From an uncultured delta proteobacterium (GTDB lineage Bacteria; Desulfobacterota; WTBG01; CAIYCZ01; CAIRTM01), in the NCBI GenBank assembly GCA_963723235.1, contig CAVRPV010000019.1, positions 18,077-82,076 on the forward strand: 64,000 bases of DNA, given 5' to 3'. The first letter of the stretch is position 1. Every line of letters starts with the position of its first letter. The position numbers were made by a program, and so were the translations under genes. Below the pieces are notes generated by a model. That model did no database searches, was not told where the DNA came from, and saw nothing but the letters and a program-made list of their open reading frames with translations. This document shows, in pieces, positions 2,961-59,130 of this stretch.

Positions 2961-3113
2961 AACTTTTTAAAAAATTTTTACGGCTGTTCAAAAATAGTCT
3001 AGCTGCAGGCGCGCACAATCATTTGGAGGGGCACGGCATGCCGTGTCCCTACAGTATCGCCTGCAGAGATCCCGCTGCATCAATGGGGCAAATAGGCTTT
3101 TTTCAACAGCCTG
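2961..3113 (+). repeat. Family-1 inverted-arm element, copy A (palindrome-module variant)
   Basis: GGCTGTTCAAAAA at 2982 and TTTTTTCAACAGCCTG ending at 3113. Internal GGGGCACGGCATGCCGTGTCCC palindrome. Lies between convergent nrdG and mnmG and abuts the mnmG stop. Confidence 0.85.
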
Positions 3114-5003
3114 TCAGGGGCTCTGGCTGCCTGATCGTTTTTTCAGCACCACCATCAGAATCGACAACGCAGCCGGTGTAATACCCGCTATGCGCGACGC
3201 CTGACCCAGAGATACCGGGCGTACCTGGTGGAGTTTATGCTTCACCTCCGTGCTCAAGCCGGAAATCCCGTCATAACACATATCAGGCGGTATGGCCCAG
3301 GCCTCCAGATGCCTGAACTTTTCAACCATCTGCTGCTGGCGCTGGATATAGCCCTCATATTTTGCGAGGGTTTCTACCTGATAGCTCACCTCCGGATCGA
3401 TACCCGGCGCTGCCAGCGCGGCGCTTTCAAGCGCGGCATAATCGATCTCAGGACGTTTCATGATTTCAAACAGGCTGCAGGGCTGCTTGAGCGGAACAGA
3501 TCCGTAACGGCTGAGCCACTGCTGAATATCCGGTCGTGGGAAAATTTTGACGCTGCGCAAACGCTCAAGCTCATGCTCAACAGCCGCCAGCTTGGCCTGC
3601 AGGCGTTCAAAATCGCCTGTTCCCACCAGGCCCAGGAGGTATCCTTTTTCGCGCAGACGTGCATCAGCATTATCCTCGCGCAGCAAAAGGCGATACTCGG
3701 CCCGCGAGGTAAACATGCGATAGGGCTCCAGCGTCCCGAGCGTGATCAAATCGTCTATCAAGACGCCGATATAGGCCTCGTTGCGCTTGAGCACAAGCGG
3801 CGGCAGGCCCTTGACCCGGCAGGCGGCATTGATCCCTGCCATGAGCCCCTGCGCTCCCGCCTCTTCATACCCGGACGTGCCGTTGATCTGACCGGCCAGA
3901 AACAGGCCCGCAACCGGCTTGGTCTCAAGTGTATGCTTGAGCTGCACCGGGTTGACGTAATCATATTCAATCGCATACCCGGGGCGCATGATCTCAGCCT
4001 CTTCCAAGCCATAAATACTGCGCACCATGCGGTACTGAATGTCAATCGGCAGGCTGGTGGGTATGCCGCTCGGGTAGATCTCAACCGTGTCAAAGCCTTC
4101 GGGCTCAAGAAATATCTGGTGCCGGTCCTTTTCGGGGAAGCGCTTGATTTTATCCTCAATCGAGGGGCAGTAGCGCGCGCCCGTGCCCTGAATAACGCCG
4201 GTATACAGCGGTGAGCGGTCAAAGCCCTCACGAATGATCCGGTGCGTTACTTCATTCGTATAGGTGATATGGCAGGGAATCTGGCGGCGGGGGCCCGGAG
4301 GCGAATTAAATGAAAACGGCTGCGCAGGCTCATCACCGTACTGCGGCTCAAGCACGTCGAAATTGATCGTGCGCGCATCAAGCCGGGGCGTGGTTCCGGT
4401 TTTAAGCCTGCCGGTATGCAGGCCCAGCGCATGCAGCGAATCAGTCAGGGCTGTTGCCGGCAGCTCTCCCAGGCGCCCGGCCGCAAACTGCGTCAGGCCG
4501 ATATGCACCAGCCCGTTCAAAAACGTTCCGGTGGCGATAATGACCGTCCGGGCAAAGAAACGCTCTCCTATGCTTGAAACAAGCCCCTTAACCTCGCCCC
4601 CCTCAACCATGATATTTTCAATCATGGCCTGCTTAATATCAAGGCCGGGAACAGTTTCCAGCTTATTTTTAATCCAGAGCCGAAAACCCTGACGGTCGGC
4701 CTGGGCGCGCGATGACCGTACCGCGGGCCCCTTCTTGGTATTGAGGATACGGAACTGTATGGCGGTGGCGTCAATGGCTTCGCCCATGATGCCGCCCAAA
4801 GCGTCGATTTCCTTGACAAGCTGTCCCTTGGCAAGCCCGCCGATCGCGGGGTTGCAGGACATGAGCCCGATGGTATCGAGCTGTATGGTGGTCAACAGCG
4901 TGCGGCAGCCCATTGTTGCGGCCGCGTGTGCGGCTTCATAGCCGGCATGCCCGCCGCCCACCACAATCACATCATACGTTACCGGATGATCAAATGCCTG
5001 CAT
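3114..5003 (-). CDS. mnmG: tRNA uridine-5-carboxymethylaminomethyl modification enzyme MnmG/GidA
   Basis: 629 aa. N-terminal FAD motif [14 protein letters not shown] and full-length MnmG-like sequence ([27 protein letters not shown]). Confidence 0.95.
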
Positions 5004-5336
5004 ACATACAACCCTTTAGATACTGTGGCACATTAAAGAATATATGTAGTACCATATTTTTGCCGCCCGGTAAATCACGATACATCCATGCCTGCTGACC
5101 AGTCTCAATTCCTGCGATACTGAGAACACTGGACTTTAAATTTTTAGATATTTTTACATAAAAAAGTAAAAAATTTTAATTGGCATAGCCCTCAAAATAT
5201 GCCATGTAGATGAGCAGACATACCCACGTGCATGGCGGCTGCCCAGATGCCGGCTCGCCATAACGGCCCCGCAATTCAGCACTCAACCGCGGGTGCCTGC
5301 AGGAGTAGGCCATGAAACATACTGAATCCCGCTTAC

Positions 5337-8412: not shown

Positions 8413-9864
8413 ATGGCATTGCAAATCCTCTCACCCCTGTCAGTACCCGATGAAGTCGAGCCCCTTATTGAAGCCGGGGCCGGGGCATTCTATTGCGGCA
8501 TTCTGCCGGAAGAGTGGCGCCGGGATTACAGCGTAGCCGCCTCGCTCAACCGCCGTCAGGAAAACACCCCGGGCCTGAACACCAGCCCGCACATGAACAC
8601 CTTTGAGGACCTCGCCCGCTGCGTGGAGCTGGCCCGGCCGCACAACGTGAAGGTGGCAGTCACCCTCAACGAGCACTACTACAGCAACAAACAGTATTCG
8701 TTTCTGACCGGCTATATTGAACAGTGTCTCAAAGCCGGGGCCGATACCTTTATCGTGGGCGACATCGGCATGATTTTGACCCTGCAGGACATTGACCCCG
8801 GCATCACTATACACATCAGCACGGCCGGAACGGCCTTTAATTCTGAAAGTGTGCATTTCTACCGCGACCTCGGGGCCAAGCGCGTTATTTTGCCACGGCA
8901 CCTGACTTTGGATGAAATCCAGGCCATAGTCGACAAGACCAGCGGCATTGAACTGGAAGCATTCATCCTGAACTCGCGCTGCGCCAACATCGACGGTTTC
9001 TGTACGTTCCAGCACGGCCTGGCCGAATTCGTCAAGGAGCCCGAGCGCAAGCGCGACTATGAAAACGCCTGCATGATGCTCTATAAAATAACCGCAGACG
9101 TCAAAGGCTGCGACAGCCAGGAGCAGGCCGAATCGATGCTGCAAAAAGTCTCCTGGGAGCGCCAGCACTTCTGGTCGGCAGTGCATATTGATGACCGGCC
9201 CTGCGGCGCCTGCGCCCTTTACGAATTTGAACGCATGGGCCTGGCCGGAGTCAAAATCGTGGGCCGGGGCAATACCTTCGACAAAAAGATCAAGGACGTG
9301 CGCTTTTTAAAAGGGCAGCTCGACTACCTGCGCACACAGAATCCGACCAGAAAAGAATTTCGCGAGCAGACGCGCAAAATCTACAAAGAAATCTATGACT
9401 GCGTGTGCCTGATTTTCAAATGTTACTATCCCTCGGTCCTGCTGGACGAGGAAAAGGTAGCTGAAAAACACCCGTCTGCAGCGTTGCGCTCATCATTCGT
9501 CACTGCGGCGTACCATAAATACGCCTCATTCCTCATGATTTCGTGCGCCTTGCATCCGAACATTTTTCAGCAACCTTTAATGGCAATCTTTAATAGGCAT
9601 GTATTGTCACCGTGGAACCCTCATATCTTTCAGCCCACAAAAACGGAACGCTTGCTGCCCGCATTGAAATGGCCCTTGATGCTCTCGCGTGCTGCGAAAT
9701 GTGTCCGCGCTGCTGCCGGGTCGACCGCACGGCCGGCAAAACCGGCATATGCAAAACCGGCCGCAACGCAATTGTTGCAAGCTTTGCTCCGCATTTCGGC
9801 GAAGAAGCACCTCTTGTCGGCCGCTACGGCTCAGGCACCATATTCTTCAGCAACTGCAACCTGA
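8413..9864 (+). CDS. Peptidase U32 family protein; 3' end uncertain because the ORF reads through a repeat
   Basis: U32-like N-terminal barrel sequence and Cys motifs (NSRCANIDGFCTFQHG, DRPCGACALYEF). After about codon 350 the frame runs through family-1 copy B and 253 nt into the next gene, so the real C-terminus is probably near 9460. Confidence 0.65.
   Translation: MALQILSPLSVPDEVEPLIEAGAGAFYCGILPEEWRRDYSVAASLNRRQENTPGLNTSPHMNTFEDLARCVELARPHNVKVAVTLNEHYYSNKQYSFLTGYIEQCLKAGADTFIVGDIGMILTLQDIDPGITIHISTAGTAFNSESVHFYRDLGAKRVILPRHLTLDEIQAIVDKTSGIELEAFILNSRCANIDGFCTFQHGLAEFVKEPERKRDYENACMMLYKITADVKGCDSQEQAESMLQKVSWERQHFWSAVHIDDRPCGACALYEFERMGLAGVKIVGRGNTFDKKIKDVRFLKGQLDYLRTQNPTRKEFREQTRKIYKEIYDCVCLIFKCYYPSVLLDEEKVAEKHPSAALRSSFVTAAYHKYASFLMISCALHPNIFQQPLMAIFNRHVLSPWNPHIFQPTKTERLLPALKWPLMLSRAAKCVRAAAGSTARPAKPAYAKPAATQLLQALLRISAKKHLLSAATAQAPYSSATAT
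9460..9575 (-). repeat. Family-1 element, copy B (reverse orientation)
   Basis: The reverse complement reads GGTTGCTGAAAAATGTTCGGATGCAAGGCGCACGAAATCATGAGGAATGAGGCGTA...GTACGCCGCAGTGACGAATGATGAGCGCAACGCTGCAGACGGGTGTTTTTCAGC. Confidence 0.85.
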
Positions 9865-12127: not shown

Positions 12128-12199
12128 GTAGGGTGGACTCGCGAAGCGTGTCCACCATTAACATTAAACCGGTGGACGTGCTATGCAAGTCCACCCTAC
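12128..12199. repeat. Family-3 REP doublet (REPIN-like), GTGGAC class
   Basis: GTAGGGTGGACTCGCGAAGCGTGTCCACC ... GGTGGACGTGCTATGCAAGTCCACCCTAC, two inverted GTAG-headed palindromic units. Confidence 0.8.
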
Positions 12200-12236
12200 A
12201 TTTACACAAGTCCAAATTCTAAAACATGCTTACCCG

Positions 12237-12358
12237 GGCTGTTCAAAAATGCTCAGATGCAAGGCGCACGAAGTCATGAGGACATGAGGCGTACTTTTCC
12301 GTACGCCGCAAAGACGAATGATGAGCGCAACGCAGCAGATGGGCGTTTTTCAACAGCC
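12237..12358 (+). repeat. Family-1 element, copy C (basic variant)
   Basis: GGCTGTTCAAAAATGCTCAGATGCAAGGCGCACGAAGTCATGAGGACATGAGGCGTACTTTTCCGTACGCCGC...CGCAGCAGATGGGCGTTTTTCAACAGCC. The last base overlaps the stop codon of the downstream minus-strand gene. Confidence 0.9.
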
Positions 12359-13328
12359 TAGACATGATTTCGCAGCTTGAGCTCCATTGGATGCGGGTTC
12401 AGATAATACTGCCCGGCCAGGTAGGCCTCGCCGTATTTGCGAACATAGTGGTTTATCAAGGTTACCGGCACAATCAGGGGCACCTGCTCGCAGTGATACT
12501 GCTCAATAATCTCCAGCATTTCCTTTTTTTCATCCGGCGAAAGCTGCGTCTTGAAATAGCCCATCATGTGCTGCAGCACGTTGACATGCTTTTTGACTGT
12601 TGGCCTTCAATGCCAGTGCCTCCATCAACAGCGCTTGGTAGCGTGCGCGCGCCTCAACTGTCTTGAGGGCCTTGCCCTGCGCCACAAGTCGGCCCATCTC
12701 GCGGTAATGCATTGTACTGTGAGATAAAATCAGCAGTTTATGCCGGGTATGGAAGTCAATAACTGCGCCGGCACCGGAACCGGCGGCAAGCATCGCGCGC
12801 CAACGCTGGTAGACAAAGATACGCTCGATGAAATTTTCGCGCAGCACCGGATCGTGCAGACGGCCTTCTTCCTCGCAGGGCAACAGGGGAAAATGCTCCA
12901 TGAAGGCCCGCGCGAACATGCCCACCCCGTTGTGCGCCGGGATGCCGTTCTCTTCGCTGTATACCTTGACGCGCTCCATGCCGCTGCTGGGGGATTTGCT
13001 CTTGAAGATAAAGCCGCACAGGTCTTCTGCCTCAAGCTCGCGCACACGTCATGCGGGCCCAGGACTGCATCTGTGCGGTAAGGTCTTTCTTCGTGCTGAT
13101 CGTAACCAGGCGCGGAGCATCGGCAGTGCCCACAAGGCGCATGGCCTCGCGCGGCACGGAAAGTCCGCATTCCACCTCGGGGCATACGGGCACGTAGGTT
13201 ACGTAGCGGCCGAGCGTGTCGGTCAGGAACCGGTCGTGCTGATGTCCGCCGTCATAGCGCACATTCTGGCCCAGCAGGCAGGCGCTGATGCCCAGGCGAA
13301 TCGGCGATGAATTATCATTGAATTCCAT
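12358..13328 (-). pseudogene. DUF523 (YbbK/TudS-like) + DUF1722 fusion protein, two frame breaks
   Basis: Three ORFs (13032..13415, 12530..13045, 12358..12579) join into MEFNDNSSPIRLGISACLLGQNVRYDGG... / RELEAEDLCGFIFKSKSPS... / VKKHVNVLQHMMGYFKTQLSPDEKKEML... Breaks near 13046-13050 and about 12603. ATG at 13328. Confidence 0.75.
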
Positions 13329-13421
13329 AAGATACAAACCCCTGGGTGTGCCGTGCGCACCGATCCACAAAAACGAAGCAAAGGGTGCGCACGGCGAACC
13401 CTGTAACCTGTGCACAATGCG

Positions 13422-14740
13422 TTACGGTACAACTTCAATCTCACCAAAGCAGCTTCCAACCCAAATCGGAACAGTGCCCGGCCTGAGACCTGCAGGCACA
13501 ATCGCCTCAACCTTCAGGCGGTTCTTTTTCCTGTTAAAGGACTTTTTCCTCCATGTAAGCGGACCCAGATCAATCCGGGAGTACATATCAAAGTCCTCAT
13601 CGCCGGTGATCTCCAATACAACCTTTCTGGGTTTAAACAGTTTCGCGTACTGTATCTTTTTATGCTCGATATCCAGCGCGCACGCACCAACGCATTCTGT
13701 TGTTTCAGGATAATGCGCAAGGGCATCCAGCTTTTTTTCATCCGGCTCAAAAAAGGAGAATGTCTTGCCAATCAACGTACGATTAAGCTCATAGGTATAA
13801 TCAATAAAGTCGCCTGCAACATTGCCCGACAGATCTTCCTGAACATCCAAAACCCTGACAGGCGTTTGGCAGGAAAAATCAAAAGAGCTCATATCAAAAT
13901 ATCGAATGTTTGTATTATCAATCGTATGAAAACTAATGCGGCGATGCTGCACATCGTAGGCGATACTCCATTGGTTGATCGCGAGCCTTGTCAGATTTAA
14001 AATATTAAATGTGTAATCAATTGCAGGTCCGGATGTTTCCGGATCATAGTCTTCCAGCATCTCCGCTGCCGTACAAAAATTTCACCGAAGAAGGCATATC
14101 CGCCACTTGTATCTCTTCATTTTCGCAATATTCGAGTTCTGTCGAATATATGTCGTTTCTAAGCATTTTAACAGGCATCGTTTCCTGTGCTGTTTGATGC
14201 ACCACCAATACTCCATCGAGGAACTCAATAGAGGCACAATTCCCCAGACTGTCACATATAAAAAAGTGATATTGCCGCCTGGCCGCTGATTCTCATTTCT
14301 GCATCGCTTGCGATCACATCTGCCACTGTCGCTGCAGTGTCAAGCTGATACTGAACCCATTGGATGGCTGGAATGGCCGGACGTGCATCAGGAGCCGGAT
14401 ATTCGGTTTGTTCAAGATACATGGCGCTGACGACTAAGCCGGCTTCATTCATCCCTTCAAAGGCAAATTCCCGTCCCCAGGGATTGAATGTTACGCTGCC
14501 GTATTTTGAGGTCCAGCTTACAGGCTTTCCCCCGGTCCAATCCCGGGGTAAAACGGCTATTTTTGAGACATTTCTTTTGTTGACGATTATTAAACCATCA
14601 CTGGTAAGCCAGTCAAAATTTTTACCGACCACGAGTTCATCATGGGTATCGAGACAGAACGTTGTACATGCATGGCTGGCTTGCGGCAGGAAAACTGCAA
14701 TAAAGATACAGCAGAAAAAAAATAGTCGTTGGTATTTCAT
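13422..14740 (-). pseudogene. Choloylglycine hydrolase / linear amide C-N hydrolase (Ntn) family protein, two frame breaks
   Basis: Signal peptide followed by a nucleophile Cys (SHACTTFCL). The ORF 14252..14740 stops, and the middle part HFFICDSLGNCASIEFLDGVLVVHQT... is in a third frame. ORF 13422..14060 supplies the C-terminal half. Breaks near 14265 and 14058. The gene is visibly AT-richer than its neighbours. Confidence 0.75.
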
Positions 14741-14827
14741 CCTATCCTCCTCCTGTATAATTCGTTTCTATGTGTACGGCAGGTGCCTGGCTCGCTGGCC
14801 GCTTTAACGAAAAGTCAAAATTGCGGG

Positions 14828-15319
14828 TTACTCCTTATACGCCTGTATCCACTCAATCTCGAGCTTAAATGCCCCAGCCTGCTTGTCGGCGATCAGGAAG
14901 CCTATGGCCTGAATAACACCGGGATTAAGCGGCGGCGCCTCAGGAGACGGTTGCCCCCGGAACGATGCCTTAAATTCACTAAAAGGCGCCTTGATAATCA
15001 TCCACTCGTTAGACGAAACCGCAAAACGGAACTGGTAGGAAAAGCCGCCGAAAGATGCATCGTTCTTCAGGGTCAGCTTGTAGGTTCTGCCGTCGCCTTT
15101 GCAGCGCACGGCAATGCCGCTGAATGCCGAGGCATCCACGGGCACGGCCTGACGCGAACTTGCCGAGCAGAAGCCGCCGTAATTCTCAAGCGACACCACT
15201 CCGGCGAACACGGCCCCGGACGAATCGGCCTTCGTGAACGTGCTGCGCGACACGCCGCCCATAACGCCGTCGTTAATTACCTTCCACTGCTGCAGCTGCT
15301 CGTCGCGTGGAAAAATCAT
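14828..15319 (-). CDS. CIA30 (complex I intermediate-associated protein 30) domain protein
   Basis: 163 aa. WKVINDGVMGGVS...FAGVVSLENYGGFCS pattern typical of the CIA30 family. Confidence 0.75.
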   Translation of the reverse strand: MIFPRDEQLQQWKVINDGVMGGVSRSTFTKADSSGAVFAGVVSLENYGGFCSASSRQAVPVDASAFSGIAVRCKGDGRTYKLTLKNDASFGGFSYQFRFAVSSNEWMIIKAPFSEFKASFRGQPSPEAPPLNPGVIQAIGFLIADKQAGAFKLEIEWIQAYKE

Positions 15320-15436
15320 AAACCATCATCATGCGTGCATCGGACATGGCACTCTCCCCTGAAAACAAATCCTTGCGCATGCTGCCACTATAGGCGGCAT
15401 TTTCACAGGTCGCCTCTATACGCGGCCCAACCCGAG

Positions 15437-15452
15437 ATTTTTCAACAGCCTG
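15437..15452 (+). repeat. Family-1 solo right arm
   Basis: ATTTTTCAACAGCCTG, 7 nt from the stop of the gene at 15460. The sequence upstream has no convincing match to the element core. Confidence 0.5.
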
Positions 15453-15459
15453 TTAAGGC

Positions 15460-16221
15460 TTAGAACTCCGCCGAGGGCGGATAGCTCAGATCCACCAGAA
15501 CGCCGGGCGGTATGCCGACGCCAAGTCCCATTTTCACGGCCACATCCTGCAGGGTAAGATACTCAAGCCAGCGCCCGTTCCTGCGAAGCTTCTGTTTTAC
15601 CTCGGCCTGTGTATAGGGCCTGTCCTTGCTGCCTTCAAGCACATACATATAGCCGTCAAAAAATGCGCGGTACGCGGCGATAAAAAGATCGAGCTTCTCC
15701 GGGCCAAGGTGCATGAGCCTGCACCCGGCCTCCGCCGCAAGCGATGCACCCCAGTGCTCCATGCGATAATGATCGGCGAGGCCCGCGCGCAGGGCCTTTG
15801 TATCAACGCCGAATGTTTCGGCAACACAGTCCATGGCCGTGCGGGCAGCCGCATACGTTTGAGGGTCAGAAACTGCCGGAAAAACATCAAGCATCATATG
15901 ATAGGGGCCCTCGCCGGTCATGCCCCATTCCGTATTGAAATGGCCCATGGGGCACCAGGGGTTTACCGGAAAAATCTCCACCTGAAAGACCATGTAGTCA
16001 ATCACCCGGTCCAGCTCCGGCGGCTTCACCTGGTTGAGCTTCATGTGGGTAACGCTTGCCTTCTCTATGCAGCCGCCCCGAATGACGGCGACATCGGCCT
16101 GGCCCACCTTGAACGGCACGGTTGTGCGAACCAGCTCGCCGCCGCCCGAGGCCTCAAGCAAAGCCCGGATAACCGATTCGCGCGTTTCTTCGACAAACGA
16201 GAAGATTTTCTGGTCTTTCAT
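15460..16221 (-). CDS. Coproporphyrinogen III oxidase (HemF)-like family protein, divergent and short
   Basis: 253 aa. It aligns by eye to HemF blocks: VIRGGCIEKASV (cf. VLRNGGVFEQAGV), PVNPWCPMGHFN (cf. PHNPYVPTSHAN), RRNGRWLEYLTL...LVDLSYPP (cf. RRGRYVEFNLV...ILMSMPP). The central RGIGGLFFD block is not conserved. Confidence 0.55.
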   Translation of the reverse strand: MKDQKIFSFVEETRESVIRALLEASGGGELVRTTVPFKVGQADVAVIRGGCIEKASVTHMKLNQVKPPELDRVIDYMVFQVEIFPVNPWCPMGHFNTEWGMTGEGPYHMMLDVFPAVSDPQTYAAARTAMDCVAETFGVDTKALRAGLADHYRMEHWGASLAAEAGCRLMHLGPEKLDLFIAAYRAFFDGYMYVLEGSKDRPYTQAEVKQKLRRNGRWLEYLTLQDVAVKMGLGVGIPPGVLVDLSYPPSAEF

Positions 16222-16384
16222 TGTGGTATCTTTCTGCAGAAATCACATCAGCGTCTTTCCGGACTCCCCTCCCCCGGTACAGGCATCTATTGAGAACAGC
16301 CCCATTGAGCTGCTCTCCCATTACAGTTCCAACGGCTCGCTGAATGCCGCAGCTGCATGAGCGGCTTTCTTTGAAGTTCCGTAC

Positions 16385-17074
16385 CTAGTTCTTCTCGCTG
16401 CCAATGAAACGATAGATCAAAGCACCGAGAATAGCCCCAACAATCGGGGCCAGCCAGAAAAGCCACAGCTGTGAAACCGCCCAACCACCGACAAATAGGG
16501 CAACACCGGTACTGCGTGCAGGGTTAACGGAGGTGTTTGTAACCGGTATGCTGATCAGGTGGATGAGCGTCAGGCAAAAGCCGATTGCAATCGGTGCCAT
16601 GCCCTGCGGCGCGCGCTTGTCTGTAGCGCCGAGAATAACGAAGAGAAACATCATGGTCATGACGACTTCAGTAATCAGTGCAGCCAGCAGACCATATCCG
16701 CCCGGGGAATGTTCACCGTAGCCGTTTGAAGCAAAGCCTGCAGACAGCTCAAAACCCGCCTTACCGCTGGCAATGAGATACAATACACCGCCAGCTACAA
16801 TCCCGCCCAGAACCTGGGCAATGATGTAGGGCAGCAGCTCTTTGCCCGGGAAACGACCACCGGCCCAGAGACCAAAAGAAACCGCAGGGTTGAGATGACA
16901 GCCGGATATGTGCCCGATAGCGAAGGCCATCGTCATGACAGTCAAGCCAAATGCCAGTGCAACGCCAAGCAAACCAATGCCCACATTCGGGAACGCGGCT
17001 GCCAGAACAGCACTGCCGCATCCGCCTAACACCAGCCAGAAAGTTCCAATGAATTCAGCACAATACTTTTTCAT
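16385..17074 (-). CDS. aqpZ: Aquaporin Z
   Basis: 229 aa. Two NPA boxes (HLNPAVS, SVNPARS) and an AqpZ-like sequence throughout. Confidence 0.93.
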
Positions 17075-17198
17075 AGACCCTCCTTTGCCTTGTTAATAAG
17101 AATGTTTTGGTATCAGCCTCCTTTACTTCCTACGCAATTTCCAACCGCTTGTCAACCATACAGAACCATCCCTCGTACCTTTATTTTAGTGGTATGGA

Positions 17199-18152
17199 TC
17201 ACACGCCTTCGCCCAGCAACAGCGCCAGAAGGGCTTTTGCGGTGTGCAGCCTGTTGCCGGCCTCTTCAAACACGACAGAGTTTGCGCCGTCGATAACCTC
17301 ATCCGTCACCTCTTCCCCCCGTCGGGCCGGAAGGCAATGCATGAACACGGCGTCCTGCTTTGCCCAGGACATGACGTCCGCATTGATTTGAAACGGCATG
17401 AAGTCCGCAAGTTTTTTCCTGGTTTCATCCTCGGAAACTTTCGTTCTCTGCATGCTGGTGAACGTAACGCCAACAACGATATCCGCACCCGACATGGCCG
17501 TTCTCAGGTCATGCGTTACCGAAAACGAACCCCCGGTTTCTTTATTGCGTGCATCGATCCATTCTTGTGCAGCCCGGTCAAATGCGTATCCCTGCGGAAT
17601 CGCGCAGGTCATTTCAAGGCCGAAGATTGCGCTCATAATGCCCCAGGAATATGCCATGTTCCAGACATCGCCCACAAAACCGATCTTCAGATCGTGCAGT
17701 CTCCCCTTTTTTTCTCTGATGGTCTGAAGATCGGCCAGAAGCTGCAGCGGATGGCGCTCATTGGTGAGGCCGTTGATCACCGGCCTGGCCATATATGCTG
17801 CGAATTCCTCGATCCGTCGCTGCTCAAACGAGCGGATCACCAGCGCATCGCAGTACTGATCGATCACCCGTGCCGTGTCCGGTATTGACTCGCCCCGTGC
17901 GAGCTGCATTGATGCAGCCTCCATCGGGCACATCGTGATGCCCAGATGAGCGCCGGCAACCAGGAAGGAAAGCCGGGTGCGGGTCGAATGCTTTTCAAAA
18001 ATCATGGCAACCGTTTTCCCGCGCAGCGAGTCATGCGGTTCATGCCTTTTAAGTTTGGCCTTGTATTCGTCGGCAGAATCCAGAATTGCAATGATTTCAT
18101 CTCTGGTGAAATCCTGCAGCGTTAAAAAATCCCGCCCCGTAAATTCGCGCAT
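17199..18152 (-). CDS. Ornithine/aspartate carbamoyltransferase family protein with atypical second-substrate motifs
   Basis: STRTR, HPLQ and HCLP carbamoyl-phosphate/fold motifs are present. The usual DVWxSMG loop reads VTFTSMQ, and GDxxNN reads GDVWNMAYSW. Start taken at MREFTGRDF (18152); an alternative ATG is at 18167. Confidence 0.75.
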   Translation of the reverse strand: MREFTGRDFLTLQDFTRDEIIAILDSADEYKAKLKRHEPHDSLRGKTVAMIFEKHSTRTRLSFLVAGAHLGITMCPMEAASMQLARGESIPDTARVIDQYCDALVIRSFEQRRIEEFAAYMARPVINGLTNERHPLQLLADLQTIREKKGRLHDLKIGFVGDVWNMAYSWGIMSAIFGLEMTCAIPQGYAFDRAAQEWIDARNKETGGSFSVTHDLRTAMSGADIVVGVTFTSMQRTKVSEDETRKKLADFMPFQINADVMSWAKQDAVFMHCLPARRGEEVTDEVIDGANSVVFEEAGNRLHTAKALLALLLGEGV

Positions 18153-18283
18153 AGCGCATACCCGCATGATGTACTCGATATGAATCCCGTGGATTCAAGC
18201 GTGCATTTCAACGTGTGCTTGCAGCCGTTTTCCTGAATGGTTGCCTGTACCCGGCTGTATTGTCGTAATCGCCCCTGCTGTTG

Positions 18284-23699: not shown

Positions 23700-23714
23700 G
23701 CTGCGTGTCCTTTA

Positions 23715-23892
23715 GGGTGTTGTAAAAGTCTTTTTTTACAGGCTGTTCAAAAATGCGCAGATGCACAGGCGCCCGATATCATTTGTAAGGGCACGGCATG
23801 CCGTGCCCTTACCGTACGCCGCAGTGATCCCGCCATGGCGGGAATAAGCGCAATCCCGCTGCAGCGGGACAGGTGTGCTTTTTTCAACAGCC
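23715..23892 (+). repeat. Family-1 element, copy E (palindrome module + two GGGA hairpins)
   Basis: Outer arm GGGTGTTGTAAAAGTC and left arm at 23741. GTAAGGGCACGGCATGCCGTGCCCTTAC at 23785..23812. TCCCGCCATGGCGGGA and TCCCGCTGCAGCGGGA hairpins. Right arm ends at 23892. Confidence 0.9.
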
Positions 23893-24071
23893 TTCGCGAG
23901 GGCACATTATACCAGTAAACGCACTTCATATCCACAGTTCACTGACATCACGCCAAAAAAACCGCTCACGCTCCGGCCTTTCAATTTTCTTTGCGAACCG
24001 GTAAACAGTCAAGTATACTGTTCCCCGCAACTGCCGCACAACAGACCCATGCTCTATGAAAGGACCATCGA

Positions 24072-28162: not shown

Positions 28163-28172
28163 CTGCTACCGG

Positions 28173-36941: not shown

Positions 36942-36976
36942 TGCACCGATGCTCTCGATTGCAGGATCGCGTTAAC

Positions 36977-38070: not shown

Positions 38071-38234
38071 GCTGAAAGTTTATTAAGATAAATCGGTTCG
38101 GGCTGTTCAAAAATGTTCAGATGCAAGGCGCGCGAAGTCATGAGGAATGAGGCGTACTGTTGCGTACGCCGCAAAGACGAATGACGAGCGCAATCCCGCC
38201 ATGGCGGGACAGATAAGCGTTTTTCAACAGCCCG
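38071..38234 (+). repeat. Family-1 element, copy J
   Basis: Left arm at 38101, GGCGTACTGTTGCGTACGCC hairpin, TCCCGCCATGGCGGGA hairpin, right arm TTTTTCAACAGCCCG ending at 38234. Confidence 0.88.
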
Positions 38235-39984: not shown

Positions 39985-40018
39985 CGCACCTGCAAAAAGT
40001 CTGAAAATGCTATTTTCA

Positions 40019-40097
40019 GTCATTCCGGCGCAGGCCGGAATCCAGAAATCTCAGCCACGTAGAAAGACACTGGACACCGGCCTTCACCGGTGTGACG
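40019..40097 (+). repeat. Family-2 twin-hairpin element
   Basis: GTCATTCCGGCGCAGGCCGGAATCC ... GGACACCGGCCTTCACCGGTGTGACG. Confidence 0.85.
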
Positions 40098-40122
40098 AAT
40101 TTTGCTAAATCATCAAAGCTTA

Positions 40123-40187
40123 GTAGGGTGCGCCGTGCGCACCGTCGGACAATGCGGTTTTTTGATGGTGCGCATGGCGCACCCTAC
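40123..40187. repeat. Family-3 REP doublet (REPIN-like), GTGCGC class
   Basis: GTAGGGTGCGCCGTGCGCACC ... GGTGCGCATGGCGCACCCTAC. Confidence 0.8.
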
Positions 40188-40207: not shown

Positions 40208-40363
40208 GGATGCGGAAAAAGTACTTGATATGGGCTGTTCAAAAATGCCCGGGTACAAGGCGCGTGATGTCATTTGTAAGGGCAAGGCATGCCGTGCCCC
40301 TACCCTAGCACGGTGAGCACAATCCCGCCATGGCGGGATAGACGGACGTTTTTCAACAGCCCG
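40208..40363 (+). repeat. Family-1 element, copy K (palindrome module)
   Basis: Left arm at 40233. GTAAGGGCAAGGCATGCCGTGCCCCTAC at 40276..40303. TCCCGCCATGGCGGGA hairpin. Right arm ends at 40363, 7 nt from the SDR stop. Confidence 0.88.
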
Positions 40364-42188: not shown

Positions 42189-42452
42189 TTGAGGAAAAAT
42201 CAATTGTTCTCTACAGCATGTAACTTTTTTGTGTACCCTGTTTCTTTTGCTGTCATCTCGAACCCGGATGGCAAGGCAGGCTGCGGGAGAGATGTTATGA
42301 GGATTGATGAGGCGCTACTATTTCGTACGCTCGCAAATGACAAAGTGCACGAACACAAGGCTGCAATGCCCTTCAGGGCGAAGCATGCAGTGGCCGTACC
42401 GTACGCCGCAATGAGTGACGAACGCAGCAGACGGACGTTTCGGGAAAGCCTG
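42189..42452 (+). repeat. Family-1 element, copy L (decayed, internally duplicated)
   Basis: Degenerate arms (TTGAGGAAAAATC..., ...GTTTCGGGAAAGCCTG), two successive core-like blocks, and CCGTACCGTACGCCGCAATGAGTGACGAACGCAGCAGACGGACG. Ends 3 nt from the helicase stop. Confidence 0.6.
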
Positions 42453-44444: not shown

Positions 44445-44514
44445 GGGTGTCGAATAAAATTTCCTTACAGGCTGTTCAAAAAAACTATAGCGGAAGACAG
44501 CACTTTTTCAAACA
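44445..44514 (+). repeat. Family-1 mini element, copy M
   Basis: Outer arm GGGTGTCGAATAAAATTTCCTTACAG, left arm GGCTGTTCAAAAAA at 44470, short core, degenerate right arm CTTTTTCAAACA. Confidence 0.55.
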
Positions 44515-44788: not shown

Positions 44789-45289
44789 ATGATTGCTATT
44801 CACTTTCCCCGCGCTGTTGAGGAGAACCCCTGCGCACAGGCCCTGCACGACCTGTTCCGCGCGGCACAGGCCCGGCCCGGGCATGGACTGCCGGAGATAC
44901 AGCTGGATGCCCCGGTTACAACCGTGCTGCAGCGGGCCCTGCGCACAGGGCGGCTCAAGCGCGGATTTGATACCACACTTGAGGTTCTGGCCAATGAACG
45001 CAACGGCCTTGCACATCTGCGCCACAAAACCGGTACGGAACAAAAAGCGCGGGTATCGCGCCTTATCCTGATAAGCAACGATGCCTCTGAGCGGTTGCTT
45101 CGCGAGATTGCGCTCACACTGCAGCGCAATGCTCCGCGCGTGCTGGCCCTTGCCCTGCAGGCCAACAGCGCTACACTGGGCAGCCTGCTCTTTGGGCCGG
45201 ATACGAATGTCAAGGTGCTGCTGCTTGATCACAAGGACACGGTGGCCGAGATGCTCATTGCCGCAGCGCAGCAGCATGAAACCTGTTAG
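44789..45289 (+). CDS. Hypothetical protein (possibly L7Ae/YlxQ-like fold, weak)
   Basis: ATG at 44789 preceded by AAGGAG. RLILISNDASERLL...LG resembles the L7Ae/YlxQ pattern, but the similarity is weak. Confidence 0.45.
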   Translation: MIAIHFPRAVEENPCAQALHDLFRAAQARPGHGLPEIQLDAPVTTVLQRALRTGRLKRGFDTTLEVLANERNGLAHLRHKTGTEQKARVSRLILISNDASERLLREIALTLQRNAPRVLALALQANSATLGSLLFGPDTNVKVLLLDHKDTVAEMLIAAAQQHETC

Positions 45290-45291
45290 CA

Positions 45292-45382
45292 AAATGTTGC
45301 AAAAGTCTTTTCATACAGGCTGTTCAAAAATGTGCAGATGCAAGGCGCGCAACGCAGCAGATGTATGTTTTTCAACAGCCTG
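45292..45382 (+). repeat. Family-1 mini element, copy N
   Basis: Outer arm AAATGTTGCAAAAGTC. The left arm at 45318 is joined directly (…GCAAGGCGCG|CAACGCAGCAGATG…) to the right arm ending at 45382. CCTGTTAGCA is repeated at 45282..45291 and 45379..45388. Confidence 0.8.
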
Positions 45383-45403
45383 TTAGCAGATCGGGGACAG
45401 ACG

Positions 45404-45891
45404 ATGAATCCCATATGCATCGGCCTTGGCACCAACATAGGCGACCGCGAGGCCAATTTGAGAACAGCGCTTGAGCGCCTGCAGCCAATCGTGAACTGTG
45501 GGGCTGTCTCGGACATTTTTGAAACCGAGCCTGTCGGCATTGTGAAGCAGGACTGGTTTTTAAACATGGTCCTGCGGGGCACAACCTCACTTGACGCCTT
45601 TGAACTCCTGGCGGCCCTGCAGCGGATTGAAATGCTATGGGGCGCAGCCGCCTGATTGATAAGGGCCCCCGCATAATTGACTTGGACATTTTGCTGTATT
45701 CCTCTACAATACTTCACACAAAAAGCCTGACGGTGCCGCACCCGGAACTGCACCGGAGAGCATTCGTGCTCATGCCGTTGGCACAAGTGGCCGCGGACTG
45801 GATGCATCCGGTGCTGGGCGCAACAATTCAGGAACTTTTGCAGAAACTCAACGATGATAAGGCGGTACGCGTATGGACACAAAAAAAATAG
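45404..45891 (+). pseudogene. folK: 2-amino-4-hydroxy-6-hydroxymethyldihydropteridine diphosphokinase with one frame break near 45630
   Basis: MNPICIGLGTNIGDREANL...FETEPVG...LQRIE in one frame, then GRSRLIDKGPRIIDLDILLY...VPHPELHRRAFVL in the next. The break is at ATTGAAATGC. Confidence 0.8.
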
Positions 45892-57096: not shown

Positions 57097-57109
57097 GTTA
57101 CTTCTACCC

Positions 57110-57214
57110 GGCTATTGAAAAAAACCTGTCTGCTTGGTTGTGCTCATCATTCGCACGCCTTGCATCCCGATATTTTTAAACAGCCTGTTTTCAATACCTG
57201 TTTCAAAAACCTGC
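57110..57214 (-). repeat. Family-1 mini element, copy O (reverse orientation, extra arm copies)
   Basis: The reverse complement reads ...GGTATTGAAAACAGGCTGTTTAAAAATATCGGGATGCAAGGCGTGCGAATGATGAGCACAACCAAGCAGACAGGTTTTTTTCAATAGCC. Lies between tRNA-Met and the rpoD stop. Confidence 0.75.
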
Positions 57215-57220: not shown

Positions 57221-58972
57221 TCAGTATTCGACGAAACTCTTCAGTTTTTTGTTGCGGATCGGATGCCGCAGTTTTCTCAGGGCCTTGGCCTCAATCTGGC
57301 GGATGCGCTCACGCGTTACATCAAAATCGCGGCCGACCTCCTCAAGCGTATGATCGGCGCGCTCGCCGATACCGAAACGCAGACGCAGCACCTTTTCCTC
57401 GCGCGGCGTCAGCGTACCCAGCACCCGCTGCGTCTGATCGGACAGATTTTTATACGTGACCGAATCCAGCGGGCTGGCAATTTTTTTGTCCTCAATGAAA
57501 TCCCCAAGATGGCTGTCTTCCTCCTCGCCGATCGGTGTTTCAAGCGATATGGGTTCCTTGGCGATTTTCAAAACCTTGCGCACTTTTTCAAGCGGCAGCT
57601 CCATTTTCTCGGCAATCTCCTCGGGCACAGGCTCGCGTCCGTTTTCCTGCACCAGGTAACGCGAGGTACGGATGAGCTTATTGATGGTCTCAATCATGTG
57701 CACCGGAATTCTGATCGTGCGGGCCTGATCGGCGATGGCGCGGGTAATGGCCTGCCGGATCCACCAGGTGGCATACGTGCTGAATTTGTAGCCGCGCTGA
57801 TACTCAAATTTTTCAACAGCCTTGATAAGGCCGATATTGCCTTCCTGAATCAGGTCTAAAAACTGCAATCCGCGGTTGGTATATTTTTTTGCCAGGCTCA
57901 CCACCAGGCGCAGATTGGAGCGCACCAGCTCATCCTTGGCGATTTTCGCCCGCTTCTCACCGCGCTCAATGCGACTGATTGCATCTTTGAGGCTGGTCAC
58001 AGGCAGGCCTGATTCTTTCTCCATCAGGCGGATCTGCTTGGTGTAATCACGGATCTCACTATCCAGATCCTGCAGGTCCTCGACTTTCAGCCCGAATTTA
58101 CGCTTGATTTTGCGCTGCTCGTTCTTATCATCACGGCCCTGCCGGATCATGCGCCGGATTTCAGTCGGATCGAGTCCCACTTTGCGGCAGCATCGTGTTA
58201 TGCGGCGCTCAAAGGCCTCCACCTCTTTCAAAAACCCCCGCAGCCGTATCACGACCCGATCCAGATATTTTTTCTTTATCCGGAGTTTTTTTAACGCGTC
58301 AAACAGTTCAATCTTGTTGCTTGCAACTTGGCTGCTCAATAACTTTTTGCGCTTTTCGCTCAGTTCCTTTTTTGTCGCCAGCCGCAGGGTTAACTTTTCA
58401 TTTTCATAGTACAGCTTGCCGATATGCTCAACCTGAGCCAGGAAGCCGGCCACATAGCCTTCCTCGTCAATTTCGTTATCTTCATCATCAAGCCCGGTAA
58501 TTATTTCGCGGATGGACATCTCGCCGTTCTCAAGCGCAGTGCCGAGCTGCAGGGTTTCCTCAACCGTTATCGGTGAATTCAACACAACATCCAGAACCTC
58601 TGACTCACCATCCTCAATCCGACGCGCGATACGCACCTCTTCCTCACGGGACAGCAGAGAAACCGAGCCCATTTCTTTCAAATACATGCGCACGGGATCG
58701 TTCATTCTCCCGTAGAGGTCTTTTTCCTCATGCTGCGGGGCATCATCCTGCGCGGCCGCCTTGGCGGACTTGCTGGGTACGCGCACGCCCTGGCCCGAAT
58801 CAACGATTTCAATGTCCATCTCGCCGAACATGTGCATCAGCTCATCGATCTGATCAGGAGATACCATTTCGGGCGGCAAAACATCATTGACTTCATCATA
58901 GGTAAGAAAACCCTTCTCCTTACCGATATCAATCAGCTGCTTTACCTGCTCGATTTTGGGTTTACGTCCCAT
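57221..58972 (-). CDS. rpoD: RNA polymerase sigma factor RpoD
   Basis: 583 aa with regions 1.1 to 4.2 (…[27 protein letters not shown]…). Confidence 0.96.
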
Positions 58973-59012
58973 CTATGCGGCTGCTTCAGACATCTTCACC
59001 GTCAAATGTTGC

Positions 59013-59130
59013 CGCACTCGTAAAAAGTCCGAATCCTGCGTTGCGCCGCATCCTCAGGCATTGCGGCGTACAGCAAGTACGCCTCATTCCTTCGGATTTG
59101 CGCGCCTTGCCTGCGAACTTTACAAACAAT
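59013..59130 (-). repeat. Family-1 element, copy P (diverged), flanked by a 20/21-bp direct repeat
   Basis: The reverse complement reads ATTGTTTGTAAAGTTCGCAGGCAAGGCGCGCAAATCCGAAGGAATGAGGCGTACTTGCTGTACGCCGCAATG...GGACTTTTTACGAGTGCG. Flanks are 58993..59012 and 59131..59151. Confidence 0.8.

Follow-up and report, generated by a model that had tools for sequence, protein, structure and literature searches.

The window, that is, the whole 64,000-nucleotide stretch of DNA from an uncultured delta proteobacterium that was analysed, carries copies of a real, previously unnamed family of non-coding MITEs of approximately 150 bp. These MITEs have IS5-type ends, show a YTAR target duplication, and are most likely moved in trans by an IS5-family DDE transposase, a reading to which we assign a probability of about 0.85. 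The arm GGCTGTTSAAAAA, with at most one mismatch, occurs 27 times in the window, compared with 0.28 expected, and none of 100 shuffles reached 27. The nhmmer profile gave 15 non-overlapping matches, and the covariance model, run with filters off, recovered 13 full or deleted copies scoring from 125 down to 13 bits, to which a decayed copy (L), a left-end fragment at 44445 and a solo right arm at 15437 are added. The original prediction had listed 16 places, all of which hold the copies or fragments that it described. It had recognised no named family, and Rfam indeed gives no match, either at the gathering threshold or at E values up to 10, while the arm sequence has no match in the literature searched. 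Further copies were expected outside the window; the family occurs in many anaerobic bacteria, in about 66 assemblies and at least 117 loci, and each of the 117 genome loci fetched gives at least one profile match. Most of these loci belong to Syntrophales, the others to Peptococcaceae, Bdellovibrio, Nitrospirae and more.

A complete element comprises a left terminal inverted repeat, CAGGGTGTTGAAAAAGTC, a spacer of approximately 11 nt, and a foldback core of approximately 125 nt, in which the first arm, CAGGCTGTTCAAAAA, forms a stem with the right terminal inverted repeat, TTTTTCAACAGCCTG. The predicted succession of outer arm, spacer, left arm, core and right arm is present in full. What had been missed is that the element truly begins with the outer arm, which is the left terminal inverted repeat and has the right arm as its partner, as well as the YTAR duplication and the coincidence of many copies with stop codons. 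The outer arm starts 24-29 nt ahead of the inner arm, most commonly 26 nt, and at this distance 48 copies show a match of at least 11/15 to the reverse complement of their own right arm, a level reached by only 3 of 111 copies when the upstream sequence is shuffled. The 4-nt flanks of these 48 copies are identical in 19 cases and agree at three of four positions in 12 more, CTAG, CTAA, TTAG and TTAA being the commonest. As 11 of the identical pairs are non-palindromic, the duplication is direct, and a TA duplication with complementary element tips is ruled out. Insertion duplicates a 4-bp target with the consensus YTAR. Nevertheless, a perfect duplication is kept in only about 40% of the testable copies, which counts against the MITE reading.

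Several copies in the window (on the plus strand unless stated otherwise) illustrate this arrangement. Copy F (25077-25225), a full canonical element scoring 125.3 bits with the covariance model, has ATAG on both sides (25073-25076 and 25226-25229), the left one including the TAG stop of an FGE-sulfatase gene, and is also bordered by an extended 16-bp direct repeat, ATAGAGGCTGATGAAA. TTAG is found on both sides (45286-45289 and 45383-45386) of copy N (45290-45382; 76.1 bits), an internal-deletion derivative, and GTAG on either side of copy O (57108-57213, minus strand; 65.4 bits), an internal-deletion derivative with an outer arm, located between rpoD and tRNA-Met. Copy N retains the hairpin base and has lost the apex across GCGC, as had been proposed for two mini copies. 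The second of these, at 44445-44514, turned out to be a left end only (fragment M, 44445-44489), with outer and inner arms followed by native sequence, since the stretch taken for its right arm is also found, conserved, in a relative without the element. Copy B (12235-12360; 121.2 bits) has a canonical core but lacks the outer arm; a solo right arm, ATTTTTCAACAGCCTG, lies at 15437-15452.

The ends of the MITE are related to those of IS5-family insertion sequences. A 1,539-bp insertion sequence, found in locus L135 and in Sinorhizobium meliloti plasmids (L150-L153), reads CAGGGTGTTGAAAAAGCC...TTCTTCAACAGCCTG between two copies of CTAG, or with CTAA on both sides. DUF772 and DDE_Tnp_1 domains are found in its 367-aa transposase, which reaches 266 bits (cut-off 140) against the NCBIfam model NF033581, 'IS5 family transposase'. 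This insertion sequence shares with the MITE its ends (CAGGGTGTTGAAAAAG on the left, CAGGCTGTTGAA.AA on the right), the same G-versus-C difference between left and right end, and the 4-bp YTAR duplication (CTAG or CTAA). When the end of E. coli IS5 is aligned with that of the MITE, 12 of 15 positions agree, and both have GGTG.GAA.AAGTC and the YTAR target, YTAR being the target duplication of IS5 (PMC10359306). In contrast to IS5-family insertion sequences, the MITE lacks a transposase gene, is approximately 150 bp rather than 1.2-1.5 kb long, shows no likeness inside the terminal repeats, and has a third, internal arm and a long covarying hairpin. As had been noted from the sequence, the window appears devoid of transposases: none was detected by Pfam in any of its substantial ORFs, and none with MITE ends was found in the window or in approximately 0.9 Mb of loci from MITE-carrying genomes. 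The hosts differ as well, the MITE being found in Syntrophales and others and the matching insertion sequence in Rhizobiales; the sole autonomous match thus comes from a different phylum from any MITE host. The cognate transposase may be encoded elsewhere in the host genome or supplied transiently.

That the family behaves as a non-autonomous MITE, as originally proposed, is supported not only by the target duplications and the autonomous IS5-family relative but also by near-identical copies within a genome and by presence or absence at orthologous sites. In the Peptococcaceae genome BRH_c4a, four 187-bp copies are 99-100% identical, have unrelated flanks, and each read GAGAGTGTTGCAAAAC...CAACAGCCTC between two copies of CTAG. 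At orthologous sites, copies are gained, lost and decaying. In the nitroreductase-hpt gap, L121 alone has a copy, which sits precisely at the stop codon of hpt; between hpt and valS there is one in the window and in L121, but none in L119 or L120; and the nadC-coaX gap holds one in the window, whereas the two genes abut in the P0005 contigs. L154, with approximately 93% nucleotide identity, carries a copy upstream of the uvrD-neighbour gene that is absent from the window. The comparison yielded no clean pair of a filled and an empty site sharing identical flanks; the intergenic sequences around the sites have diverged or contain other repeats. If the element were instead a fixed site that does not move, either a cis-regulatory RNA or a protein-binding stretch of DNA inherited next to particular genes, this would fit the shared positions of copies H, I, J, K and L in L154 / L121 and the sequence blocks conserved across phyla. 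However, the target duplications and the insertion polymorphism at orthologous gaps refute this explanation, near-identical copies have unrelated flanks, and the neighbouring genes have nothing in common, so we regard it as extremely improbable.

The core of the element is combinatorial, as predicted: GTAGGGGCACGGCATGCCGTGCCCCTAC occurs four times and TCCCGCNNNNGCGGGA six times in the window, every one within a copy. Copies H, J and K carry different modules from their L154 counterparts at the same site. Copy H (33233-33393), located 25 bp upstream of valS, is a full element with a TCCCGCCATGGCGGGA side hairpin and flanks CTGA and CTAA; it has orthologous copies in L121 and L154, and none in L119 and L120. 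Copy J (38099-38234; 98.7 bits) has a core with the TCCCGCCATGGCGGGA hairpin and no clear outer arm, and its L154 orthologue exhibits CGAAG in place of the hairpin. Copy K (40208-40363; 51.3 bits), which adjoins the 3' end of an SDR gene, is a palindrome-apex variant with a canonical apex in L154. These variable modules, small REP-like palindromes at the apex and in the 3' arm, are thus exchanged in place, since they differ between orthologous copies.

The nested GTAG-headed GC-rich palindromes and TCCCGC..GCGGGA hairpins look REP-like, the REPIN core of Neisseria, ATTCCCGCGCAGGCGGGAATC, is similar in form (bioRxiv 10.1101/2021.07.10.451892), and the family recalls the mosaic build of BIMEs. 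The earlier comparison with BIMEs is apt for these modules and does not extend to the complete element. A REP/BIME or REPIN system moved by a RAYT (HUH-type, Y1) transposase would draw support from the apex module, GTAG-GGGCACGGC-AT-GCCGTGCCC-CTAC, which has the GTAG head and palindrome of REPs, from the REP-like GTAGGGGCAGGCCCCTGTGCCTGCCC in relatives, which has both features likewise, from REPIN-like doublets in the window (12129-12199 and 40124-40187), and from a faint Y1_Tnp match on a related contig; a single-strand transposase would also select for strand-specific folding. Yet the element has terminal inverted repeats of 15-18 bp and a variable direct 4-bp duplication, neither of which is found in REPs or REPINs. 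Moreover, canonical copies are devoid of any GTAG-headed palindrome, the palindrome modules of the window occur only within copies, and no RAYT gene is present in the window. For the whole element, this explanation is largely refuted and very unlikely. The nested modules, with the palindrome GTAGGGGCA, are the part to which the REP/RAYT idea could still apply.

With regard to position, 57 of 111 right ends coincide with the end of an ORF of at least 90 codons, the stop codon being located between -3 and +11 nt, and in 28 of these the stop codon immediately follows the right end. Since every YTAR sequence includes a stop codon whichever strand is read, and since insertion produces a second copy of it, an element can probably land exactly on the stop of a gene without damage, and such harmless landing would explain why half of the sampled right ends lie at stops. 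A total of 28 copies lie between convergent genes and 9 between divergent genes, and the flanking genes are unrelated housekeeping genes with nothing in common. In the window, copy A (2961-3113; 34 bits) has a palindrome apex and a degenerate outer arm, and its right end directly adjoins the TCA stop codon with which the minus-strand gene mnmG (3114-5003) ends. The right end of copy G (28170-28359), which has the outer inverted repeat, a palindrome apex, extra hairpins and flanks CTAC and CTAT, abuts the CTA stop codon of the TerC gene, and that of copy L (42189-42452), a decayed composite copy, abuts the uvrD stop codon; the L154 orthologue of copy L is intact, with different nested hairpins. 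Copy E (23713-23894), with the outer inverted repeat, a palindrome apex and two TCCCGC..GCGGGA hairpins, lies in a divergent promoter region, with the start codon of speA 15 bp away, and the diverged copy P (59013-59130, minus strand; 67 bits), with eroded arms, lies between dnaG and rpoD. The claim that no copy lies inside an intact CDS needs to be qualified for two ORFs. The U32 peptidase ORF (8413-9864) has no stop ahead of copy C (9454-9577, minus strand; canonical core, right tip truncated; 113.9 bits), and its frame continues through the copy, and ORF 27831-28244 extends into copy G. Separately, an extra exact 13-mer at 57809-57821, within the rpoD coding sequence, is probably a chance match.

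The core folds into one long imperfect hairpin of approximately 125 nt with conserved purine-rich internal loops. Compensatory changes affecting both sides are observed in 28 of its 39 predicted pairs, and 93.2% of the cells are paired, compared with 81.5% in shuffles (none of 500 reaching the observed value) and 32-46% with slid partners. Selection on pairing is strongly supported, and the paired changes from which it had first been proposed are real, both in copy I (36976-37123; 123.8 bits), a canonical copy with both arms changed together (GGTTGTT/AACAACC), and in copy E (GTAAGGG...CCCTTAC) relative to copy G. In 73 of 77 copies, folding favours the top strand, by approximately 10 kcal/mol; the consensus folding energies are -41.6 (top) and -16.0 (bottom), and G-U cells outnumber A-C cells by 255 to 47. 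As a plain DDE MITE does not predict strand-specific hairpin selection, this bias counts against the MITE reading.

The strand bias, the covariation along the entire hairpin, the A/G-rich unpaired columns (38% A, 30% G), the conserved tandem G-A/A-G motif (CAGATG opposite CAGATG) and the GAAA-looped mini-hairpin in the outer arm of some subfamilies could all be explained by a mobile form of the structured RNA module that had also been suggested originally. Such a module would have spread as a MITE, but its sequence would be kept by selection on the top-strand transcript, as a hairpin for protein binding or processing, as a terminator or as a stabiliser of mRNA, with many copies domesticated. 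In the same direction, copy I, located between nadC and coaX (L121 has no copy there), is 99.3% identical to its L154 orthologue, compared with 85-93% in the flanking genes. Nevertheless, divergence in this region is mosaic, other intergenic stretches also being 97% identical, so the identity of copy I does not show selection. The orientation of copies relative to co-directional flanking genes is random (28 sense, 25 antisense), and the top strand folds better in either orientation, so selection cannot be acting on host transcripts. Neither a promoter-like site nor an IHF site was found in the element, and the unrelated neighbours and the lack of an Rfam match also speak against an RNA module, which we consider possible but rather unlikely.

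With DNA energy parameters, the top strand is likewise the more stable one in 73 of 77 copies, and the asymmetry is independent of transcription context. This is consistent with a hairpin of single-stranded DNA, in which one strand must fold, for example at the replication fork, for the transposase to join the ends; the covariation and strand bias would then reflect selection on the ability to transpose. As only still-transposing master copies shape a family without its own transposase, the conserved structure may point to a role in transposition, and the stem base formed by the inner and right arms restores one double-stranded terminal repeat. However, a direct duplication of 4 bp is the hallmark of a staggered cut through both strands, and we know of no IS5-family DDE transposase that needs a single-stranded hairpin. 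Furthermore, 11 of the 15 window copies, a small number, lie on the negative-GC-skew strand, which is not the direction expected for lagging-strand-template exposure. This explanation appears unlikely. For a MITE moved by an IS5-family transposase, the inserted hairpin, flanked by A5 and T5, would probably act on read-through transcripts, and its predicted action is that of a terminator in either direction or of a target for stabilising or processing factors. A simple terminator scan did not call the element because the loop exceeds the limit of the scan.

Among known small repeats, the Correia elements (CREE/NEMIS) of Neisseria, which duplicate TA, are also intergenic MITEs, of 100-160 bp, with internal-deletion variants and long hairpins in transcripts that recall the fold of the present family. 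Their inverted repeat is TATAGTGGATTAACAAAAATCAGGACAA and they are confined to Neisseria, whereas the present family has CAGGNTGTTGAAAAA, a 4-bp YTAR duplication and an extra outer arm. The Correia end AACAAAAATCAGGACAA loosely resembles TTCAAAAATGCTCAGATGCAA of the present family (PMC5039591), and RNase III cleavage of Correia elements and effects on neighbouring genes are documented (PMC10969869). Repeats of the ERIC/IRU, RUP, BOX and SPRITE types are likewise non-coding, intergenic and hairpin-forming, and can affect transcripts (PMC10969869); SPRITE resembles a Rho-independent terminator (PMC3184786). Nevertheless, their sequences and hosts are unrelated, and none of them is reported with a YTAR duplication or IS5-type ends. 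Chunjie, a deltaproteobacterial MITE from Geobacter uraniireducens, also forms stable hairpins at the RNA level (PMC3184786). However, this A+T-rich element of 178-235 bp has inverted repeats of 21 bp and direct repeats of 9 bp (PMC3184786), and is a different family from the MITE described here.

The repeat that occupies intergenic gaps of the window is an undescribed, widespread and strongly structured MITE of the IS5 type. This agrees with the MITE reading of the original prediction, which is borne out by terminal repeats, a fixed 4-bp duplication, dispersed copies, and the presence or absence of the element at orthologous gaps. With at most one mismatch, the 13-nt arm GGCTGTTSAAAAA is found 27 times in the window, against 0.28 times in dinucleotide-preserving shuffles, and the predicted sequence is present at all 16 places that had been listed. 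The MAFFT alignment of 13 window copies gives a canonical unit of about 124 nt, which reads CAGGCTGTTCAAAAA-TGCxCAGATGCAAGGCGC-...-GGCGTAC-loop-GTACGCC-...-GAGCGCAACGCAGCAGATGGGCG-TTTTTCAACAGCCTG. Searched with a profile made from these 13 copies, the window gives 15 non-overlapping nhmmer matches, and a covariance model run with its filters off returns 13 copies, the assigned strand scoring far above the opposite one (125 vs 44 bits, for example). The copies range from 67 to 260 bp, below the limit of about 500 bp applied for MITEs, and are non-coding: they share no conserved ORF, and every reading frame is interrupted by the variable modules. The density is approximately one copy per 4 kb, with roughly a quarter of the intergenic gaps occupied, among genes that are of the housekeeping kind (nrdD, mnmG, valS, nadC, coaX, uvrD, mutS, rpoD, dnaG, nuo and others). 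The two alternative core modules that had been proposed are real, since GGGCACGGCATGCCGTGCCC occurs four times and TCCCGCNNNNGCGGGA six times, within the window solely inside copies of the element. The place at 44445-44514, which had been taken for a mini copy, is a left-end fragment only; the sequence on its 3' side (TATAGCGGAAGAC...TTTTTCAAACATATTTCTTGC) is native and is also found in a relative that lacks the element there. An exact arm 13-mer (GGCTGTTGAAAAA) also lies within the rpoD coding sequence, at 57809-57821 (-), where the rest of the element is missing, and is probably a chance match.

The ends of the element are defined most clearly in Peptococcaceae BRH_c4a, where four 187-bp copies with 99-100% identity lie in unrelated flanks, each as CTAG|GAGAGTGTTGCAAAAC ... 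TTTTTCAACAGCCTC|CTAG. These boundaries show that the left terminal inverted repeat proper is the outer arm of the original prediction, and that CTAG is the target-site duplication. More generally, 48 copies carry, 24-29 nt upstream of the inner arm, a match of at least 11 of 15 positions to the reverse complement of their own right arm, a level reached in shuffled upstream sequence by 3 of 111 copies only; in one copy (locus L055) the match is 15/15. The 4-nt flanks of the 48 copies are identical in 19, and alike at three of the four positions in 12 more. Their consensus, dominant on both flanks, is YTAR (CTAG, CTAA, TTAG, TTAA and sometimes CTGA). A TA duplication bordered by complementary element tips was ruled out, as 11 of the identical flank pairs are non-palindromic and hence direct repeats (e.g. 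TTAG...TTAG and CTAA...CTAA). Perfect duplications in the window are those of copies F (25077-25225; ATAG), N (45290-45382; TTAG) and O (57108-57213 (-); GTAG), and three of the four positions agree in copies G and H.

Two copies from different phyla, copy F (here 25073-25241) and one at about 4800-5019 of locus L020, show a 15-16-bp direct repeat in place of the 4-bp one. This longer repeat consists of the duplication together with the first 11-12 nt of the left end, recurring past the right end, and odd substitutions are common to the left end and the flank. Other short elements that end in CAGGNTGTTGAAAAA and lie between CTAG flanks, with interiors unlike that of the MITE, were also observed (L147 1283-1320, L133 3849-4020, and L134), and one of them is a 31-bp foldback made of terminal repeats only. 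The outer arm and spacer of the MITE look like this foldback, which is free-standing in L147, and appear to have been fused to the core via the near-palindromic CAGGCTG tip. One insertion-sequence group appears to have given rise to several MITE families.

The 4-bp YTAR is a known target signature of IS5 (PMC10359306). The end of E. coli IS5 (GGAAGGTGCGAACAAGTC) agrees with that of the MITE (CAGGGTGTTGAAAAAGTC) at 12 of 15 positions, with one gap. A closer relative was found by scanning viral and plasmid-like contigs with YTARSAGGNTGTTGAAAAA: contig L135 carries, within a disrupted gene, a 1,539-bp insertion sequence bounded as CTAG|CAGGGTGTTGAAAAAGCC ... GACTTCTTCAACAGCCTG|CTAG. Its 367-aa product has DUF772 and DDE_Tnp_1 domains and scores 266 bits against the NCBIfam model NF033581, 'IS5 family transposase' (cut-off 140). 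This insertion sequence is present in 101 plasmid records, mostly of Sinorhizobium meliloti, in which the matches stop exactly at its termini; further copies lie in different contexts with CTAG or CTAA flanks. Its left end is identical to the outer-arm consensus of the MITE over 16 nt and its right end agrees at 14 of 15 positions, including a C at the right end that both share (left CAGGG, right CAGGC). As both the ends and the duplication match, the MITE has IS5-family ends and target behaviour.

No partner transposase is encoded in the window, in line with the original prediction, and Pfam detects none in any substantial ORF. With E. coli InsH as query, tblastn gave no match in about 0.9 Mb of MITE-bearing loci; with the L135 transposase, the sole match was a truncated piece of another insertion sequence (locus L035). 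When the loci were searched for an autonomous copy, arm motifs 0.6-3.5 kb from one another proved to be chance pairs or to belong to neighbouring MITEs, and a perfect MITE copy had no match among plasmids. A multi-copy two-ORF insertion sequence is present in MITE-carrying genomes (L148 146-1885, L149, and L035 4616-5090). Its two products are a DUF772 protein of 129 aa and a DDE_Tnp_1_6 protein of 376 aa, and its ends are CGGCCTGTTGCCCAAAT with TTAA flanks; the type is related to the presumed partner of the MITE, but the ends differ. The truncated L035 copy adjoins a MITE, and its end, which could be read as a distant outer arm of that MITE, belongs to the two-ORF insertion sequence.

With regard to named families, the original prediction recognised none, and no paper describing this MITE was found; an earlier entry in ISfinder or Dfam may exist. 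Literature searches on the arm sequences and on miniature inverted-repeat elements of Syntrophus returned nothing. Rfam gave only a tRNA at gathering score over the window, and nothing relevant at E ≤10 over two canonical copies. The Correia element (CREE) has a 26-bp inverted repeat, TATAGTGGATTAACAAAAATCAGGACAA (PMC5039591), whereas that of the MITE is CAGGNTGTTGAAAAA; the likeness is confined to the A-run and CAGGA/CAGATG, and with so loose a similarity membership of the Correia family was rejected. Membership of Chunjie was likewise ruled out, as its 9-bp direct and 21-bp inverted repeats (PMC3184786) differ in length from the duplication and terminal repeats found here. REP sequences and REPINs were defined as imperfect palindromes of 20-40 nt with a 5' GTAG head, without inverted terminal repeats and without target duplication. 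Canonical copies have no GTAG palindrome and do have terminal repeats and duplications; the nested apex module alone fits that definition. By analogy, the MITE may resemble Correia or ERIC elements in its likely effects on transcripts (PMC10969869).

As YTAR reads TAA or TAG on both strands, and as the duplication restores YTAR on each side, insertion on a stop codon leaves the gene intact. In the sample, an opposite-strand ORF of at least 90 codons terminates at -3 to +11 nt from 57 of 111 right ends, its stop codon following immediately in 28 of them, and flanking gene pairs are convergent in 28 cases vs divergent in 9. Examples in the window are the stop codons of mnmG, the TerC gene, uvrD, and the FGE-sulfatase gene. 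This pattern may arise from target choice, tolerance or both, and a target duplication that always contains a stop codon offers an explanation for the many copies at gene ends, as a form of gene-safe insertion.

The claim that no copy lies inside an intact coding sequence needs qualification for two copies, C (9454-9577 (-)), through which the ORF of a U32 peptidase reads, and G, into which the ORF 27831-28244 runs. The U32 peptidase ORF (8413-9864) has no stop before copy C and continues for about 135 extra codons through the element, overlapping the next gene, which encodes a radical-SAM protein; the stop codon of the peptidase was apparently lost or exchanged upon insertion. The ORF that enters copy G is the short second of two DPBB_1 (RlpA-like) paralogues, which result from a 275-nt duplication with 92% identity (25434-25708 and 27844-28118). 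Naming the MITE family would clean up the annotation of such extended or shortened ORFs.

The scan pattern GGCTGTTCAAAAAN10CAAGGCG, applied to one genome per species, is carried by at least 117 loci from about 66 assemblies, and each locus holds at least one match to the profile. Among the loci listed, the majority come from Syntrophales MAGs (Syntrophaceae, Smithella, Syntrophus), with other hosts labelled as Peptococcaceae BRH_c4a, Nitrospirae, Methylomirabilota, Binatia, and Desulfuromonadales. MAG host labels are open to binning error; those of isolates are not, and the latter comprise Bdellovibrio sp. HCB-162 and HCB2-146, Pseudodesulfovibrio pelocollis, and Smithella sp. SCADC. As the family is present in dozens of uncultured Syntrophales and other anaerobes, it is a potential marker for strain comparison.

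Mobility is apparent from contigs syntenic with the window, which were reached through homologues of its coaX. In the gap between the nitroreductase gene and hpt, a full copy is present solely in contig L121, exactly on the hpt stop codon (CTAT...CTAG), and is absent from the window and from contigs L119 and L120. The hpt-valS gap is occupied in the window (copy H) and in L121 but empty in L119 and L120. Copy I occupies the nadC-coaX gap of the window; L121 has no copy there, and the two genes abut in further contigs (P0005). Contig L154, from a closer relative, is collinear with the window over 14 kb at about 93% nucleotide identity and has copies H, I, J, K, and L in common with it, and the element is intact where copy L of the window (42189-42452) is decayed. 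L154 also has an extra full copy upstream of the gene neighbouring uvrD, between a TATAAT box and that gene's ribosome-binding site; at the corresponding position of the window, CTGA occurs once. The related contigs compared yielded no perfectly clean match of a filled with an empty site. The conservation of copy I was considered as a sign of selection; this was dropped, as the divergence of its region is mosaic. At the site of copy N (45270-45404), L154 has 6.9 kb of extra genes (12924-19828 of the reverse complement), including those for an MFS transporter, MazE, and Fic/RhuM, and copy N therefore sits on the breakpoint of an insertion or deletion.

Orthologous copies also differ in their modules. 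Copy J carries TCCCGCCATGGCGGGA where its L154 orthologue has CGAAG, copy K has a palindrome apex vs the canonical apex of its orthologue, and copy H departs from its orthologue over a single stretch of about 40 nt, with very few differences elsewhere. Thus, the core that had been described as combinatorial probably arises at least partly in place, for which gene conversion between copies would be the simplest means, and these differences provide a view on recombination among small-repeat families. The apex variant GTAG-GGGCACGGC-AT-GCCGTGCCC-CTAC has the form of a REP sequence, with a GTAG head and a GC-rich palindrome, and a free-standing REP-like sequence, GTAGGGGCAGGCCCCTGTGCCTGCCC, is found in gaps of relatives. 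In the predicted folds, the apex palindrome stands in for the GGCGTAC stem, with TCCCGC..GCGGGA folding to the side as a separate hairpin; other taxa have different nested hairpins at these two positions. Copies N and O are short because of internal deletions, and both retain the base of the hairpin.

The hairpin itself was analysed on an alignment of 77 distinct canonical-length copies from many taxa. RNAalifold gives one long hairpin of 39 pairs, 28 of which show changes on both sides. The paired cells amount to 93.2%, vs 81.5% in shuffles, none of 500 of which reaches 93.2%, and sliding the partners by 1-3 columns leaves 32-46%. Several features other than Watson-Crick pairs are conserved, namely an arm C opposite C, CAGATG opposite CAGATG (tandem G-A/A-G), and the loops CAAGGCG and CGCAACG; the unpaired columns are 38% A and 30% G. 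The two strands are not equivalent. The consensus folding energy is -41.6 kcal/mol for the written strand vs -16.0 for its complement, and when sequences are folded singly, the written strand is the more stable in 73 of the 77 copies, the margin being 10.2 kcal/mol under RNA and 3.6 kcal/mol under DNA parameters. Cells with G-U outnumber those with A-C by 255 to 47, and 17 pairs show the former repeatedly vs 3 the latter.

Host-level selection on read-through RNA was rejected as the sole cause of this bias, because the element is sense to co-directional flanking genes as often as antisense (28 and 25, a random orientation) and both groups favour the same strand. RNA from an unrecognised internal promoter is one of three candidates, and a consensus scan found no promoter-like site within the element. 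The A5 and T5 tracts that border the hairpin are invariant or nearly so in the alignment, and belong to the terminal repeats as well. With them, the element would be arranged like a terminator whichever way it is transcribed; a simple consensus terminator scan calls no terminator in the element, and the hairpin is far longer than usual. The other two candidates are a single-stranded DNA form during transposition or replication, and selection on master copies alone.

Strand-specific covariation with random gene orientation is a poor fit to the picture of a passive DDE MITE. We considered that the hairpin could be more than a by-product of inverted ends, i.e. a strand-specific single-stranded structure, of RNA or DNA, that is needed for propagation or has been co-opted by the host. 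The consistent selection of pairing on one strand across phyla, the tolerance of G-U but not A-C pairs, the conserved purine-rich internal loops, and the independence of these strand features from the orientation to host genes are all compatible with such a role. To our knowledge, a folded single strand is not a requirement of any DDE transposon, and we consider the proposal unlikely, at roughly one chance in five. If true, this would be an IS5-family MITE dependent on a folded single strand or, alternatively, a terminator or protein-binding hairpin in the form of a mobile, ready-made RNA element that has been spread to stop codons in many anaerobes.

Other small repeats lie alongside the MITE. 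REPIN-like doublets of GTAG-headed palindromes occur at 12129-12199 (GTAGGGTGGAC...GTCCACCCTAC) and 40124-40187 (GTAGGGTGCGCC...GGCGCACCCTAC), and constitute a second repeat family, of a type that RAYT transposases mobilise. No RAYT gene is present in the window, and a faint Y1_Tnp match was obtained on the related contig L119. A third family, with versions in L119 and L154, has two copies that are 78% alike, at 32241-32330 and 40015-40104, with two small hairpins, GTCATTCCGGCG.AGGCCGGAATCC and ACACCGG....CACCGGTGT. In the nitroreductase-hpt gap, at about 32390-32500, a REP-like pair, GTAGGCCGGAC...GTCCGGCCTAC, encloses a hairpin of the CCCTGAGCGAAGTCGAAGGG type. Apart from the repeats, the 2-thiouracil desulfurase domain PF04463 is divided over two overlapping minus-strand ORFs (12530-13415 (-)), with profile positions 2-85 in ORF 13032-13415 and 85-141 in ORF 12530-13045, which looks like a frameshift or sequencing error. 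The lineage of the window is unusually repeat-rich, and the gaps of its relatives are packed with small repeats (L119 5500-5700, L120 5640-7000, and L121 7750-8000), comprising tandem GTTCAAG units, GGGATCG units, and CATTTCGACCGAAGGGAGAAATCT hairpins.
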